This document shows, piece by piece, positions 33,180 through 42,510 of a stretch of DNA of 64,000 nt (positions are counted from its first letter, which is position 1; every line of letters starts with the position of its first letter). The DNA is from Thermodesulfobacteriota bacterium. GTDB taxonomy: Bacteria; Desulfobacterota_D; UBA1144; Nemesobacterales; CSP1-2. The stretch is from assembly GCA_035559815.1 (NCBI GenBank), contig DATMAT010000057.1, positions 6,359 through 70,358 of the forward strand. Direction: 5' to 3'. The position numbers were made by a program, and so were the translations under genes. The notes beneath the pieces are model-generated. The model had not been told where the DNA came from. It did no database searches and was given only the letters and a program-made list of their open reading frames with translations.

Positions 33180-33536
33180 TTATTGGCAAAACTTATCTAC
33201 CGTACAAATATCATAGGTATCACAGAAAGGCCCCCATGAAAACGGCCAGCAATCCGTCACCGGGGAACATTTCTTTGCACACCTACCGCTGCTACACTGA
33301 TTATTACTCTCGCACCGGCTCCCTCTGGGGAGATTACTACCGGAGGGTGGTGGGGGTTGGTCAGCACCTCCGTTCCCCACAGGCCTACTAAAAAGCCACT
33401 GAAGGAGTTGGTCCAAAAATTGCGGACTAACCACATCTCCCGGCAATAGTGAACGTGAGGATCTCTGTTGGTAGTAACCTCTTGTTTTATATAGCGATAC
33501 CTCCGCTGTAAACCCTGGAAGTGTAGATATTCTCAT
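33180..33536 (-). CDS. Leader-family precursor protein, member 1 (118 aa)
   Basis: The N-terminus is MRISTLPGFTAEVSLYKTRGYY. The core has a Pro-rich stretch and then an 8-Cys knot (CESNNQCSSGRCAKKCSPVTDC...FCDTYDICTVDKFCQ). An AGGAGG RBS lies 8 nt upstream. Confidence 0.8.
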   Translation of the reverse strand: MRISTLPGFTAEVSLYKTRGYYQQRSSRSLLPGDVVSPQFLDQLLQWLFSRPVGNGGADQPPPPSGSNLPRGSRCESNNQCSSGRCAKKCSPVTDCWPFSWGPFCDTYDICTVDKFCQ

Positions 33537-33620
33537 CTTGGTTGCCTCCTTTTAGCCTAGATTTAACTTCGGCCGTCCTAATAATGCCATATTAGCAGCT
33601 AAGATTGCAAATTGATGACC

Positions 33621-34103
33621 CTAAACAAAACAGATGCCCCCATATCCGGGTAGCGTCACAGTGGAACAGGACGCACCGACAAAGGGAATCGGAACACAAA
33701 TTCTATTTCTGCAGAGGCAGGGAGTAGTAGAGAAAAATGTCATAATTGCAGTTCCGGCGATCTGTCCCGATACGCTCGATGTGCGTGCTATAGCGCCCGG
33801 CATATATGCAATCAAGTTACGATCACATTGGCAATCAAGATATCCGCGGCGACCGTAGCAGAGGTCATGTTCCCTACATACTGCATCGACTGCGTCTATG
33901 GGCGGTGTATTTCCGGTTGGATCACCGAATCCGGGCCCGCAGTAATTGCCGTAAACCGGGACGCTGAGTTGTTGCGGCAATACCGGATCTTGTTTGGAGC
34001 GTAGGTTTATCTTTACGCCTTTATTGTCAATGCCGTAACGCTTTATTTGCCTGCCTAAGCTGGCCTCCGCTTTAAATCCTGGCACCTTGTTCATTTCATT
34101 CAA
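33621..34103 (-). CDS. Leader-family precursor protein, member 2, with a secretory-PLA2-like core
   Basis: The leader is M(NEM)NKVPGFKAEASLGRQIKRY (the likely start is the second ATG at 34094). The core carries YGNYCGPGFG (Ca-loop-like) and DAVDAVCREHDLCY (CCxxHDxCY-like His/Asp dyad). It has 10 Cys. Confidence 0.8.
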   Translation of the reverse strand: MNEMNKVPGFKAEASLGRQIKRYGIDNKGVKINLRSKQDPVLPQQLSVPVYGNYCGPGFGDPTGNTPPIDAVDAVCREHDLCYGRRGYLDCQCDRNLIAYMPGAIARTSSVSGQIAGTAIMTFFSTTPCLCRNRICVPIPFVGASCSTVTLPGYGGICFV

Positions 34104-34118
34104 CTCCTTTTTTTGTAT

Positions 34119-34925
34119 TCACCGGTCGTAGTAAGGTGACATCTTTGTAACCAAGAACGGAAACTCCGACCACAAAAGCGCAATGGCACCTGTTACAAAT
34201 GGGGCTGCAGCACTAGTTTCTCCAAATGTGAGCGACTTGCCATTAGCCCCGAGGCTGGTAATGTTGTCGCCGGGAGCGCTTAGACCTCGCTTTCCGATAG
34301 AACTTCCTAGGTTCGAGTAGTTAATCGGTCTACCTTGAAGGTCGCAGGCAACAACCGGAATAACCCACGTGTGACCGGTAACGGCAGAACTTCCGATAGT
34401 CCCCTGATTCCCAGCCGCCGCAACAACAATAACACCACCCCTTGCAGCATAATCTAGAGCCTTTTCTAATTCGCGCTCACCTTTAGATGATGGTTGTGCA
34501 AGTGCAGCGCTTAGGTTTATTACACGCGCACCTGCATCAATGGTCTCTATGATTGCCCCTGCAAGCTCCTCTGGGGTTGCGCTTGGCAGGGATTTAGCGG
34601 GCTCACCCCAGGTCTGTCTGTTTCCCGATGCCCTCTCTGAAAAAATGGGACGTACAAGCAGTGTGCAATCAGGACAGATTGCCGGAGCTAGAGAACCCCT
34701 CCTACCGCACAAGATGCCTGCCACAAACGTCCCATGCATACAGGCAGCACTGCTTGCTACGGTGTATGTCCCATCCAGTTTTCCAGGAACCTCGCGGATA
34801 TTTTCACCTGTAAGGCTGGGATGGTTAATTATGATGGGGCCATCTATTAACCCAACTGTAATTTCGGGTCTACCGCTTGTGAGTTCCATCAATGCTGTGA
34901 GCTTGACCACATCCAAAGGATTCAT
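34119..34925 (-). CDS. S8 subtilisin-like serine peptidase 1 (cytoplasmic, no signal or pro-domain; C-terminally truncated relative to its paralogue)
   Basis: The catalytic triad context is VGLIDGP (Asp), HGTFVAGIL (His), GTSAAAPFVTGAIALL (Ser). It ends ...LLWSEFP+FLVTKMSPYYDR, while the paralogue continues ...LLWSEFPKATGADMKV... for about 45 more residues. Confidence 0.85.
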   Translation of the reverse strand: MNPLDVVKLTALMELTSGRPEITVGLIDGPIIINHPSLTGENIREVPGKLDGTYTVASSAACMHGTFVAGILCGRRGSLAPAICPDCTLLVRPIFSERASGNRQTWGEPAKSLPSATPEELAGAIIETIDAGARVINLSAALAQPSSKGERELEKALDYAARGGVIVVAAAGNQGTIGSSAVTGHTWVIPVVACDLQGRPINYSNLGSSIGKRGLSAPGDNITSLGANGKSLTFGETSAAAPFVTGAIALLWSEFPFLVTKMSPYYDR

Positions 34926-35268
34926 AGTTTCATCTATGAATCCTTGTTTAACCGAAAATTCCCATTTTAAATAAACTTGTTTATATCTAAGCCTTTCCTA
35001 GTGCCATTGTCTTACAAAGAATAGGTTATTGTCAAGGAAAATTTTTTCTCCCTACTTTACTTCTGAGGAAGATGAAAATTACGTAGATACTGTAAAATTT
35101 TTGAGAATGTAGAAAGAGGTGAGTTAAAAGCTATAACAAGCAAAGTCCCCGACTTCACTCAGATAGCTGTAGGAGTTTTGAGGAAGGTGAGAACTTTTCT
35201 TACAAACGATCTGGATTTCAAGGAAATAGAGAGCATAAGAGTTATACAATTAAGTAACTTTAAAACGG

Positions 35269-35512
35269 TCAAGCAACCTTAAATGTCTTTCCGATAAGAA
35301 CGAGTCCTTCTAACTCTTCTCTCTCAAGCTTTCTTCTAATCTCGTCAAATTTCCTTACAGTATCGGGTGCGTAGAATCTCTTACCACATTTTAGACATAC
35401 CTCAAGCCATAACCCTAAGAACTGCCGTGTTAGTTCCACCTCATAGGAGCTTATCAACTTCCTTTTCGACGATTTCCCCTCCACACACAGGACATTTATC
35501 AAATAGCTTCAT
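35269..35512 (-). pseudogene. Disrupted YgiT-type zinc-finger (MqsA-like antitoxin) gene
   Basis: From the ATG at 35512, which overlaps the upstream stop as ATGA, the reading is MKLFDKCPVCGGEIVEKEVDKLL then TGA. A second frame continues ...VELTRQFLGLWLEVCLKCGKRFYAPDTVRKFDEIRRKLEREEL. The two CxxC halves are therefore in different frames. Confidence 0.45.
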
Positions 35513-41057: not shown

Positions 41058-41199
41058 AAAGACTCAAAGGAAATTGTTAACGAGTTAGCTTACGCCTTTT
41101 GTCGTGTTAGCGAGTTTGCGTGTTATTTTTCTAGCTCGTAAACCAGCAAACACGTTAACCCGCAAACATTGTTTCTTTGTGCCTTGGTGGTTTATATTT

Positions 41200-41418
41200 T
41201 TATCTCGAACGCCTGCCAGAGAAAACCAGCCAACCGTTGAGTGTGGAGGCGCGACGTTCACATCCGCCACACGGTTTAATCCCAATAGTAGACGTGACTC
41301 GCTTAATCGCATCACCCAGTCCAATTTCCTCATCGCTAATGAAACCAGGAAGACGAACCCGGTAAGGCTGTCCTTTAGTCTTACTTCTTTGACCATTTCT
41401 TGTTTCTTCCTTTTTCAT
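41200..41418 (-). CDS. Small ORF (about 72 aa) with an RLPGF motif and a C-terminal CGGC
   Basis: MKKEETRNGQRSKTKGQPYRVRLPGFISDEEIGLGDAIKRVTSTIGIKPCGGCERR... The RBS is AGGTGA, 5 nt upstream. The PGF spacing partly echoes the family leader. Confidence 0.35.
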   Translation of the reverse strand: MKKEETRNGQRSKTKGQPYRVRLPGFISDEEIGLGDAIKRVTSTIGIKPCGGCERRASTLNGWLVFSGRRSR

Positions 41419-41450
41419 GACATTCACCTATGTTACGCAAATATACATTA

Positions 41451-41478
41451 TAGGGGGACGCTGCAGCGTGCCCCTACC
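41451..41478 (-). terminator. TAGGGGG-ACGCTGCAGCGT-GCCCCTA palindromic hairpin between S8 peptidase 2 and the small ORF
   Basis: It is a near-perfect palindrome of the same family as 22129-22156 and 53394-53417. Confidence 0.4.
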
Positions 41479-41598
41479 TAAGTTGAACGCACAACTGTCA
41501 TTCCCGCACGCTTATGGATACCCCACAGCTCCCCGATAACTACATTCGGGGACAGGATTCGGGTATGACAATGTAAAAAAGCGAATAACGTGAGATAT

Positions 41599-42510
41599 TC
41601 ACCTCCTTAAACCAGACCTTATAATCTGATACGCCCCCCATGCATCAAGCAAGGGTGGAACTACCGTATTTCTCCTTCGCCCGTTCGACCGTGTAATCAC
41701 GACTTTCATATCAGCACCGGTAGCTTTTGGGAACTCTGACCAAAGCAGCGCAATAGCCCCCGTCACAAAGGGAGCCGCAGCGCTCGTTCCGCTGAACGTG
41801 AGTGGTTTGCCATCGGCTCCGAGGCTAGTAATGTTGTCGCCGGGGGCGCTCAGACCTCGTCTCCCTATCGAATTTCCCAGATTGGAGTAACTAATCGGTC
41901 TACCCTGAAGGTCACAGGCAACGACCGGGATAACCCAAGGGTGACGGGTGATAACAGTGCTACCAACTGCTCCCTGATTTCCCGCCGCTGCTACAATCAA
42001 AACGCCTCTCTTTGATGCATAATTCAAAGCCCCTACTAACTCTCGTTCACCTGTGGAAGATAGCTGCGCCATAGCTGCACTCAGGTTTATCACGTGCGCT
42101 CCCGCATCAATGGTCTCGATTAATGCCGCTGCTAGTTCATCGGGAGTGGTACTGGGCATGGGCTCTAGATGCTGGCTGCGGCTATTTCCATTTCCTGACA
42201 TCGTCTCAGCAAAAATAGGACGCACCAACAACGTGCAATCAGGACAGATAGCCGGAGCTACAGAACCCCTCTTTCCGCACAAAATTCCTGCCACGAATGT
42301 TCCATGCAAACAGGCGACACTACTTGCCTGTGCACATGCACCCGCAAGTTTTCCAGGGACCTCACGAATGTCTCCACCTGAAAGATCCGGATGGTCTAAT
42401 AACACGGGCCCGTCAATCAGACCAACTACTATCTCTGGCCTCCCGCTGGCAATATCCATCAAAGCGGTGAGCCTGATTAAATCCAGATGATTCATGCGTG
42501 GATTCCTCAC
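41599..42510 (-). CDS. S8 subtilisin-like serine peptidase 2 (full length, no signal or pro-domain)
   Basis: VGLIDGPV (Asp), HGTFVAGILCG (His), GTSAAAPFVTGAIALL (Ser). Length is 303 aa. It shares more than 60% identity with peptidase 1 across the catalytic core. Confidence 0.85.
   Translation of the reverse strand: MRNPRMNHLDLIRLTALMDIASGRPEIVVGLIDGPVLLDHPDLSGGDIREVPGKLAGACAQASSVACLHGTFVAGILCGKRGSVAPAICPDCTLLVRPIFAETMSGNGNSRSQHLEPMPSTTPDELAAALIETIDAGAHVINLSAAMAQLSSTGERELVGALNYASKRGVLIVAAAGNQGAVGSTVITRHPWVIPVVACDLQGRPISYSNLGNSIGRRGLSAPGDNITSLGADGKPLTFSGTSAAAPFVTGAIALLWSEFPKATGADMKVVITRSNGRRRNTVVPPLLDAWGAYQIIRSGLRR

Follow-up and report, generated by a model that had tools for sequence, protein, structure and literature searches.

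The closest described counterparts of the genes considered here belong to the cyanobactin pathways, with their subtilisin-family (S8) proteases PatA/PagA and PatG, and to the class I lanthipeptides, in which an S8 enzyme such as NisP or ElxP removes the leader of a precursor peptide. PatA and PatG both end in a domain of unknown function (DUF), which is made up of the Pfam domains PatG_D and PatG_C. To our knowledge, cyanobactin clusters encode no dedicated transporter, as is also the case here. ElxP is a cytoplasmic leader peptidase with the recognition motif (D/E)(L/V)xxQ and cuts after the Gln (PMC10885120). Here we analyse a 64,000-nucleotide stretch of contig DATMAT010000057.1 from a Thermodesulfobacteriota metagenome-assembled genome (MAG), referred to below as the window, in which nine genes on the minus strand share a leader and accompany genes for an S8 protease of the PatA clade, a small CGGC protein and a stand-alone PatA/PatG DUF protein. 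We document the gene content and order of this locus, its homologies, co-occurrence and conservation pattern, the cysteine parity of its products and its mobility. As we read it, the window holds one intact cassette, one that is internally deleted and one remnant. We judge it probable that these are copies of one cassette, self-contained and horizontally mobile, for the maturation of leader-bearing peptides, in which a split PatA-like protease would process tandem hypervariable precursors. This would be leader-guided peptide maturation by a dedicated subtilase in a form that is apparently undescribed; no description of the system was found in the full-text literature searched, subscription-only papers being outside that search.

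A sequence-only reading of the window had proposed nine minus-strand open reading frames (ORFs), each beginning with a common motif ahead of an unrelated Cys-rich core, and all nine are present in the 64 kb, with starts running from 40041 down to 33536. The motif, P[GE]F[TAK]A[EK]xS…Y, is borne out in all nine genes: a six-frame regular-expression search of the 64 kb for P[GE]FxA[EK] matched exactly the nine ORF sites and nothing elsewhere, and a stricter form, with the Ser two residues further, was observed 9 times and in none of 100 shuffles. Past the leader the paralogues do diverge, mean identity being 62.5% over the 16-residue motif and about 17%, the level of unrelated sequences, over the cores. 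The leader is indeed hydrophilic, with no Sec, Tat or double-glycine signal, and no Pfam or NCBIfam model covers it. Other details of that reading need amendment. It gave the leader 25 residues; the conserved motif is real, but the conserved leader is longer and includes a second motif, [VI][VILQ]P[QA], downstream. The cysteines, put at up to more than 60, range from 4 to 58. A good GGAGG-type ribosome-binding site (RBS) had been assigned to every start, and a clear GGAGG or GGAG is present at five of the nine but not at the other four; the starts at 36930 and 37995 have only G-rich stretches upstream. For the ORFs beginning at 40041 and 38403, the internal ATGs at 40026 (MKLPEF, behind GGAGG) and 38388 (MKTPGF) are likelier starts because they leave the family-typical three to six residues before the Pro.

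The intact cassette opens with S8a (41599–42510, minus strand), a compact PatA/PagA-type subtilase of 303 amino acids (aa) that lacks a signal peptide, a pro-domain and a macrocyclase insert. Both S8a (Pfam E 2.5e-27) and the second protease of the window, S8b (34119–34925, minus strand), belong to Peptidase_S8, and the best solved relatives are PagA (4H6W) and PatA (3ZXX/4H6V), at E ~1e-30, with the PatG macrocyclase at 4e-14. Two S8 peptidases with intact triads had been reported; S8a is whole and S8b, which is of the same clade and 73% identical to S8a, keeps its triad but lacks the C-terminal ~45 residues and is fused to the end of a DUF gene. Downstream of S8a lies the gene for the small CGGC protein (41200–41427, minus strand; 75 aa), followed by that for the DUF protein (40062–41057, minus strand), which matches PF18047 (PatG_D and PatG_C being represented by this model and PF18065) at E 1.4e-32, PF18065 at E 5.5e-35 and the solved PatG-DUF structure 4UVQ at E 1e-5. 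The 331-aa ORF described earlier exists, but translation likely starts at ATG 41006, behind GGAGGA, giving 314 aa. Against TIGR03895, the model of the PatA/PatG proteases, S8a matches the N-terminal part and the DUF protein the C-terminal part, both far below the curated cut-off (113 bits for S8a vs 421). By homology, S8a is a member of the PatA clade and not of the curated TIGR03895 family. Because the S8 and DUF proteins together span TIGR03895, we read the two genes as a PatA-like protease split into two polypeptides. The proposal that the S8 enzyme removes the leader is supported, and it is strengthened by the nearness of S8 to PagA/PatA and by the presence of the PatA/PatG DUF; the likeness to LanP drawn by the sequence-only reading does not hold, since the closest kin are PagA/PatA. 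That reading had also overlooked that S8b is defective, that the leader has a second motif and that a small 75-aa protein makes up a fourth component.

The system is not peculiar to the window genome. A profile made from the nine window leaders was first searched against a word-indexed database of 5.8 billion proteins and matched 434 proteins, almost all of them 40 to 85 aa long, unnamed and without Pfam domains. The typical match reads MNxMxMPGFTAEASLYKTxxxY, followed by about 12 variable residues, VVPQ and a core of 25 to 40 residues with 4 to 6 Cys. An exhaustive HMMER search of 1.84 billion cluster representatives returned 2,035 clusters (50% identity) at E ≤ 0.001, the matches nearly always beginning at residue 1 of short proteins. 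Three giant proteins among these matches (P0369, P0374 and P0376) lack the motif and were rejected as compositional artefacts. Of the long contigs found through the leader, 7 of 7 have the DUF protein, preceded directly by S8-coding sequence, the S8 being in two pieces in L087, a shortened 207-aa gene in L091 and reduced to a 157-residue tblastn match in L086. For a scan from the other end, an alignment of DUF proteins was run against one genome per species; relatives were found in at least 242 species genomes, the best 80 being 61 to 79% identical to the window protein. Hence the co-occurrence of the leader with the S8 clade and the 331-aa protein, which the sequence-only reading had offered as a check, holds when seeded from either end. 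The hosts span more than 10 phyla plus the archaeon Methanoperedens. Acidobacteriota make up about half, and the others include Nitrosospira, Nitrosovibrio, Nitrotoga, Methylobacter, Nitrospira, Brocadia, Cyanobacteria, Chloroflexota, Verrucomicrobiota, Flavobacteriaceae, Actinomycetota and Entotheonellaceae.

Gene neighbourhoods were sampled at 80 DUF-seeded loci (the best of the 242); 82 loci were scanned in all, making 83 sources when the window is counted. Nearly all loci with enough sequence have the order S8, small protein, DUF protein and then one to seven leader ORFs. A leader ORF with the strict motif is present in 75 of the 80 loci, nearly always directly downstream; four of the other five carry variants (PRF, PQF or Ala for Glu), and the contig of the fifth ends about 140 nt past the DUF gene. 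An S8 gene was found in every locus with enough upstream sequence, immediately upstream except in L043, where it lies downstream, and S8 of the PatA-like clade was recovered in 76 of the 83 sources. The small protein, found with phmmer in 65 of the 83, is missing mainly from cyanobacterial loci, from Methanoperedens and from one Brocadia locus. Clustering of all ORFs of at least 80 aa from the 82 loci added no further conserved family; the most frequent genuine family after these is confined to at most 8 loci, all in closely related Nitrosospira/Nitrosovibrio genomes, and the same all-against-all comparison gave no conserved transporter, modifying enzyme or membrane protein near the cassette. 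A radical SAM gene (43976–44869) and a luciferase-like oxidoreductase gene (42754–43695) of the window were considered as tailoring enzymes and rejected, as tblastn finds them only in one syntenic locus (L005, described below).

The anatomy of the leader was assessed in 185 non-redundant precursors, in 136 of which motif 2 was assignable by the patterns used. Motif 1, PGFTAEASLYKTxxxY, lies at the extreme N-terminus, usually with only 3 or 6 residues ahead of its Pro. Counted from that Pro, conservation (n=185) is P 100%, G 91%, F 100%, T 69%, A 100%, E 84%, A 52%, S 100%, L 74% and Y 57%, with a further Y, 80%, at +15. Motif 2, [VI][VILQ]P[QA], is mostly VVPQ, VLPQ, VIPQ or VVPA and ends 31 to 38 residues (median 34) after the Pro; in the alignment of the window leaders it appears as [VI]x(P)[QA] about 20 residues past motif 1. 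Between the motifs runs a variable linker in which Ala, Gly, Ser and Thr abound. The leader as a whole has about 37 to 45 residues and is Cys-poor, 117 of the 136 being Cys-free up to motif 2. By this count, motif 2 marks the point where conserved sequence gives way to hypervariable and Cys-free to Cys-rich, at a fixed spacing from motif 1.

We infer cleavage of the leader and its site, together with the leader binding, disulfide formation, export and biological role considered below. The protease probably cuts after motif 2. This site is favoured because [VI]xPQ fits the ElxP motif, with L/V at -4 and Q at -1, because of its boundary position and fixed spacing, because a phospholipase A2 (PLA2)-like enzyme domain starts directly past xTPQ in some precursors, and because [VIL]xPQ followed by CxxCG is kept in the tail of the DUF protein. 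A cut after AEAS in motif 1, or two successive cuts at both sites, would be a distinctly weaker candidate, entertained because of the similarity of T-A-E-A-S to G(L/V)E(A/P)S, the site of PatA. Cleavage at neither motif seems the least likely of the three.

The cores offer the main clue to the fate of the products. Past motif 2 there are 4 Cys in 46 precursors, 6 in 39 and 8 in 18 (103 of 136), and the number is odd in only 6 of the 136. Even parity of this kind is a signature of fully paired cysteines and suggests that the products are disulfide bonded; such products would therefore end up outside the cytoplasm, a view for which we take the parity as the main evidence. The cores have a median length of 45 residues, with a range of 25 to ~420, and the C-termini of the precursors are unrelated to each other and carry no conserved recognition sequence. 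None of the window precursors has a PatE-type match in Pfam or NCBIfam, and most cores match no Pfam family. Two payloads that can be placed point the same way as the parity, since both belong to Cys-rich families of the extracellular type. The core of precursor 8 (33621–34103, minus strand; leader MNKVPGFKAEASLGRQIKRY…PVLPQ, ATG 34094; 10 Cys) is secreted-PLA2 (sPLA2)-like, as had been proposed: it scores 24.4 bits against PF08398 (cut-off 23.9) and E 3e-6 against PF00068, which is below the cut-off of that model, and in 33621–34094 both a Ca-loop, YGNYCGPGFGD (Y-x-G-x-G type; YxGPG), and a His-Asp dyad, CREHDLCY, are readable. Its relatives number 270, and the close ones carry the family leader and the junction xTPQ/QLSLPVYGNYCG. 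The other payload, 461 aa long and encoded at locus L047, consists of five STIG1-type Cys-rich repeats (5 x Stig1).

One family of PLA2-like relatives, P0259–P0360, from Rubrobacter MAGs and soil metagenomes, has no leader. It retains the junction of its leader-bearing kin, (T)PQQLSLPVYGNYCG, with a Lys/Arg-rich N-terminal extension of 60 to 90 residues in place of the leader, and it is without the Cys-rich C-terminus. The source contigs are mostly 1 to 5 kb, with a few of up to 61 kb. A viral or virion-protein origin of this family is conceivable.

We propose that the machinery consists of the S8 catalytic subunit, the stand-alone DUF protein and, in most lineages, the CGGC protein of ~70 aa. 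Motif 1 would dock the precursor onto this complex, most likely onto the DUF protein, while motif 2 would enter the substrate groove of S8 and be cut after its Gln or Ala. The released cores would then fold through their paired cysteines into disulfide-rich peptides or small proteins, among them an sPLA2-like enzyme and STIG1-like repeats, and would serve, outside the cytoplasm, as a varied arsenal of toxins or antimicrobials. The DUF protein is the most conserved component, with a median pairwise identity across phyla of 74% vs 65% for S8, and this conservation, matching the near-invariance of motif 1, makes it a candidate leader-docking subunit. Its N-terminal tail is otherwise variable, but in the window it reads ILPTQ-AGGGG-CPTCG (40860–40904), like leader motif 2 followed by the start of a Cys-containing core. 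The combination of [VIL]xPQ and CxxCG recurs in 59 of 76 loci by a strict pattern, and in more when near variants are admitted, about 20 residues ahead of the folded domain. The tail, in its resemblance to a leader/core junction, may be a substrate or pseudo-substrate of S8. In an Anaerolineae locus (L045, 7728–8915), the DUF ORF itself starts with a leader-like MTRRFPRFNAEAALGR…Y (PRFNAEAALGR…Y) and also has an SLIPQ motif.

The small protein is highly conserved, with an invariant RVRLPGF[IV]xDE, and has the consensus P[YH]RVRLPGF[IV]xDEEIGLGDxIKRATxxxGIKPCGGCExRAAALNRWMVFSGRR. It comprises 1,937 clusters, every one labelled hypothetical, and neither Pfam nor NCBIfam has a model for it. Its LPGF[IVT]xDE segment (41341–41361 in the window; 50 loci) resembles PGFTAE of leader motif 1, and in L006 it reads LPGFTADED; this strand may compete for the motif-1 docking site. 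Each accessory protein would thus mimic one leader motif, and we suggest that both are docking or gating elements of a non-covalent protease complex. That the CGGC of the small protein and a CxxC of the DUF protein form a common four-Cys metal site is pure speculation. In one locus (L052, 3938–5002) the S8 and small protein are encoded in a single ORF, either as a fusion or through a possible frameshift. The broadest version of this reading is a pan-bacterial, occasionally archaeal system that makes venom-like disulfide-rich libraries by means of a three-protein complex, in which the cyanobactin DUF docks the leader, the motif mimics of the accessory proteins assemble or gate the protease, and the fused PatA/PatG proteins derive from an older mobile cassette. 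We advance it tentatively, with a good deal less confidence than the cassette itself.

Several observations weigh against maturation as outlined here. Given the resemblance of T-A-E-A-S in motif 1 to the PatA site G(L/V)E(A/P)S, cleavage might occur after AEAS, or twice. The DUF of PatG did not bind linear PatE substrates in vitro (PMC4259220). No covariation was seen between the Gly/Glu/Arg variants of motif 1 (PGF vs PEF/PRF/PQF) and the presence of the small protein, the Gly shares compared being 81% and 72%. Export would have to proceed without a Sec, Tat or double-glycine signal in the leader and without a transporter conserved across the loci, and Sec signals, which would have spoken for export, were looked for in the leaderless PLA2-like relatives and none was found, a comparison made uninformative by the Lys-rich extension of a large group of them. 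No immunity gene is conserved across the 82 loci. Finally, some large payloads have a predicted transmembrane (TM) helix; at L076 (12234 onward) and L086 (7024–8004), for example, a Pro-rich segment, the helix and a C-terminal Cys-rich domain follow the family leader.

The same components could be arranged differently. The products might be intracellular protease-activated toxins of the abortive-infection or addiction kind, with membrane-active or phospholipase effectors kept inert by the leader. The small protein, as mimic of motif 1, and the DUF tail, as mimic of motif 2, would restrain S8 until a trigger, after which the cleaved effectors would kill the host cell from inside. Such pseudo-substrate inhibition is compatible with leader-like motifs in both accessory proteins, and the lack of an export signal or conserved transporter, the hydrophobic or PLA2-like nature of several cores and the match of S8 to the generic PADLOC 'subtilase' model are in keeping with it. 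Cassettes also lie in accessory mobile regions near toxin-antitoxin-like, HEPN/nucleotidyltransferase, AAA-ATPase/exonuclease and nSTAND genes, although this association is anecdotal. We nevertheless regard toxins of this kind as unlikely. The even parity and the 4-, 6- and 8-Cys cores speak for disulfide bonds, and these do not form in the cytoplasm; hypervariable paralogues that turn over fast in arrays of 1 to 9 are atypical of defence effectors; the DUF protein, small protein and precursors have no specific PADLOC match; and no copy was found in IMG/VR. Two related proposals were rejected. For a known defence system, PADLOC gave only generic 'subtilase' matches and nothing specific for the DUF protein, small protein or precursors. 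For a phage origin, the DUF protein has no relative in IMG/VR, and PHROGs gave only a generic protease match and an unknown-function match (to the small protein).

It is also possible, but again improbable, that the leader is an export or sorting signal for an unrecognised, widespread secretion route, with the S8/DUF complex as its dedicated signal peptidase or escort. The payloads do look extracellular (even Cys numbers, sPLA2-like and Stig1-like domains), the leader is strictly N-terminal, and the hosts have very different envelopes, with Streptomyces and an archaeon among them, so that such a route would have to be universal or supplied by the cassette. Against it, the leader is hydrophilic, direct reading of the S8, small and DUF sequences gave neither a signal peptide nor a membrane segment, and the neighbouring genes include no conserved membrane protein.

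A third proposal, that the products are intracellular metal-binding or redox peptides, like metallothioneins or chalkophores, whose activation is controlled by the leader, would account for 58 Cys in 321 aa, for the CxxC motifs and for the absence of an export signal, and the hosts do include nitrifiers and methanotrophs that depend on copper enzymes. It is difficult to reconcile with the many unrelated scaffolds and with PLA2-like and Trp-rich payloads; six-Cys cores are as common as four-Cys cores, and Acidobacteriota, a group without special metal physiology, account for about half of the hosts. We consider it very unlikely. A canonical cyanobactin pathway making small N-to-C macrocycles has in its favour the PatA-type protease, the PatA/PatG DUF and the likeness of AEAS in motif 1 to G(L/V)E(A/P)S, yet no PatG macrocyclase, PatD heterocyclase or PatF prenyltransferase is conserved in the 82 loci, the precursors have no conserved C-terminal recognition sequence and no match to a PatE-type family, and the cores run from 25 to 420 residues, which together make it extremely unlikely. 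The last proposal, that the shared N-termini are chance or fragments and pseudogenes of one large known family, can point only to the cassette debris in the window (the truncated S8b and orphan DUF remnant) and is refuted by the 0 matches in 100 shuffles, the ~2,000 clusters with the motif at residue 1, the RBSs ahead of the starts and the conserved operon position across phyla.

Within the window, the intact cassette (42510 down to 36682) consists of S8a, the small protein, the DUF protein and seven precursors, all on the minus strand. Precursor 1 (39658–40041; likely start 40026) has the leader MKLPEFTAEVSLYKSAMSY…LVLTQ and a Trp-rich core with 6 Cys. Precursor 2 (39178–39597; ATG 39588), with MSKMPGFAAEASLYRTAGIY…LVLQQ, has a 20-Cys core with a poly-Pro stretch and CCPPG repeats, and precursor 3 (38749–39135; ATG 39126), with MNKIPGFTAKASLYRGSHQY…LVPAQ, has 10 Trp and 6 Cys in its core. 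Precursor 4 (38442–38693), of 83 aa, combines MSKMNLPGFTAETSVYRSTGRY…GIVPA with a hydrophobic 6-Cys core; its sequence is also that of P0001, which comes from a Thermodesulfobacteriota MAG and is labelled hypothetical, without a single difference. Precursor 5 (38065–38403; likely start 38388) has MKTPGFTAEASVYKTSEQY…RVISQ and 8 Cys in the core. Precursor 6 (37030–37995), with MNKIPGFTAEGSLYKTSGHYY…TIYPA, is the 321-aa protein with 58 Cys, built of repeated CCPxG/CxPxxxVC units and without a Pfam match. A 69-nt tandem repeat lies inside its gene at 37340–37468, and ORFs in alternative frames overlie it at 37011–37563, one of 167 aa on the minus and one of 138 aa on the plus strand; these are most likely artefacts of a repetitive GC-rich codon pattern. 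Precursor 7 (36682–36930), the last of the intact cassette, reads …MKMPGFTAEVSLYKTSEHY…TIYPAQ ahead of a 4-Cys core and has a close homologue, P0006, in a JGI metagenome. The second cassette (34925 down to 33180) consists of the S8b fusion, the usual RBS and two precursors: precursor 8, discussed above, and precursor 9 (33180–33536, minus strand), with MRISTLPGFTAEVSLYKTRGYY…VVSPQ and 8 Cys in its core. A near-consensus sigma-70-like pair of hexamers, TTGACT and TATAAT with an 18-nt spacer (42684–42713, minus strand), lies about 175 nt upstream of S8a and is a possible promoter of the cassette, the number of such sites in the region being not above shuffled expectation. Promoter and terminator scans of the region gave nothing else informative, and the whole 64 kb has no tRNA gene and no Rfam family at the gathering threshold.

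The second cassette shows how such loci may be remodelled. S8b ends …LLWSEFP and is fused in frame, at the E-F-P codons, to the last 13 codons of a DUF gene (FLVTKMSPYYDR*); the DNA identity of this segment with 40062–40110 runs through the stop codon into the downstream RBS (repeat families D1, D2 and D6). This looks like a microhomology-mediated deletion, between two E-F-P-coding stretches, by which the second cassette lost the 3' end of S8b, its small gene and almost all of its DUF gene. Just past precursor 7, at 36601–36648 (minus strand), lies an orphan 3' end from a third DUF gene (DLAEKFLFLVAKMSP*), 70% identical, as direct repeat D7, to 40075–40121; it is evidence of repeated rearrangement of the cassette. 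The two cassettes are separated by four small unrelated genes (35269–36539, minus strand), one with an AF2212-like domain of the antitoxin type (36246–36539), one with a weak MqsA-like zinc-ribbon match (35269–35502) and two with no family match; all four look like inserted toxin-antitoxin-type modules. Leader-coding DNA together with the RBS forms a dispersed repeat family with 5 to 6 copies in the window, and elsewhere tandem double leaders occur in single metagenomic ORFs (P0361, P0362, P0365 and P0403; for example MQVNEMNSPGFTADVTLYSDAMNMPGFTAENSIYKT…), which suggests that leader-coding DNA recombines internally. The repeat family and the double leaders together suggest a role as recombination handles for the leader and the DUF 3' end.

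Comparison with one syntenic locus gives an impression of the rate at which the precursors change. L005 (CAYMEO010000009.1, labelled uncultured Spirochaetia) shares with the window the order 176-aa protein, radical SAM gene, luciferase-like gene, cassette and acyl-CoA synthetase. The DUF protein and flanking genes are 79 to 82% identical between the two and the 176-aa protein 44%, while only 2 of the 9 precursors have orthologues, at 57% identity (precursor 1, 70 of 122 residues identical; precursor 5, 48 of 84). The window proteins are recorded from a Thermodesulfobacteriota MAG and L005 carries a Spirochaetia label, so one of the two bins may be mislabelled. Mobile DNA carries the cassette too: Mesorhizobium sp. 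B2-1-1 and Streptomyces sp. NBC_01568 each have it on a plasmid, and a match to the DUF protein lies on a plasmid of Sinorhizobium mexicanum. The cassette of the Streptomyces plasmid is situated between a recombinase and a Tn3 transposase, and insertion sequence (IS) elements flank that of L090. On the plasmids, the RefSeq names are 'S8 family serine peptidase' and 'hypothetical protein', and the PLSDB gene tables available for two of the plasmid records, which are incomplete, list no precursor gene.

If it holds, maturation by a dedicated split protease would add a large group of ribosomal peptides or toxins, with ~2,000 distinct precursors in at least 242 host species, among them abundant soil Acidobacteriota, nitrifiers, anammox bacteria and methanotrophs. 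Current genome annotation misses the precursor genes. We know of no role assigned to the PatA/PatG DUF since its structure was solved in 2014, and its occurrence in the cassette as a separate, highly conserved protein would offer a route to its function. The cassette measures 2 to 5 kb and several hosts are in culture, among them Edaphobacter modestus DSM 18101, Nitrosospira multiformis, Methylobacter luteus and Mesorhizobium sp. B2-1-1; for peptide discovery, it would provide a minimal, portable pair of protease and leader and many new disulfide-rich scaffolds. If the broadest version of the reading is true, the fused PatA/PatG of cyanobactin pathways would be derived, lineage-specific versions of an older mobile cassette.

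Among known systems, the cyanobactin proteases PatA/PagA are the nearest: the S8 enzyme is closest to them, the PatG_D/PatG_C DUF is present, and the xAEAS of the leader resembles the PatA site. Unlike in cyanobactin pathways, the protease and DUF of the cassette are separate, usually with the ~70-aa protein between them, and PatG macrocyclase, PatD (the YcaO heterocyclase) and PatF are absent as conserved genes from the 82 loci. The only second S8 in the window is the truncated paralogue of S8a, the only further S8 matches across the loci are pieces of genes that are split, and the loci have no recurring second family of S8 genes. In PatE precursors a long leader precedes G(L/V)E(A/P)S and the cores have 6 to 8 residues, whereas those of the cassette have an N-terminal two-motif leader, a single long Cys-rich core (median 45) and no C-terminal recognition sequence; the cassette also occurs in more than 10 phyla rather than mainly in cyanobacteria. 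With the class I lanthipeptides (NisP, ElxP) the cassette shares removal of the leader by an S8 enzyme, as we propose it, which like ElxP has no signal peptide, and a downstream motif in which position -4 is hydrophobic and positions -2 and -1 are Pro and Gln. LanP-type peptidases cut after Pro at -2 and Gln or Arg at -1, and in the cassette [VI]xP[QA] stands where leader and core meet. Lanthipeptide leaders have an N-proximal F-x-x-(D/E) box, FNLD, where the cassette leader has FTAE, a resemblance rather than an established homology. The S8 of the cassette, in contrast, belongs to the PatA clade, LanB and LanC are neither in the window cassette nor conserved across the loci, and the DUF and small proteins have no counterpart in lanthipeptide systems.

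Other likenesses are of organization. Bacterial gasdermins with a subtilase or caspase-like protease also have a protease gene adjoining pro-toxin genes in a mobile context, but in the cassette the segment taken as inhibitory is N-terminal and conserved, the effectors come in multiple copies that are hypervariable and Cys-rich, sensor domains are missing from the protease, and no specific PADLOC family is matched. Double-glycine bacteriocins and their peptidase-containing ATP-binding transporters (PCAT) find no parallel, there being no conserved GG motif in the leader and no C39 or transporter family conserved nearby. Modification beyond proteolysis has no conserved enzyme in the cassette, and the disulfides are read from Cys parity only. 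The prochlorosin, Nif11 and NHLP families have in common with it one leader for many unrelated, fast-turnover cores, and hence the logic of a combinatorial library, although the cassette leader is unrelated to theirs (no NCBIfam match) and there is no ProcM-type synthetase. The venom superfamilies, such as the conotoxins, differ in that the cassette is prokaryotic, has no endoplasmic reticulum (ER) signal peptide and encodes its protease in the same operon, so the analogy is functional only. Within it, both sides have an N-terminal region that is conserved, a Cys-rich mature region that is hypervariable and has even Cys numbers, tandem paralogues, a subtilisin-family protease (in the venoms a subtilisin-like convertase) and a PLA2 among the payloads, and the cassette, if our reading is true, would be a bacterial counterpart of a venom-peptide family.

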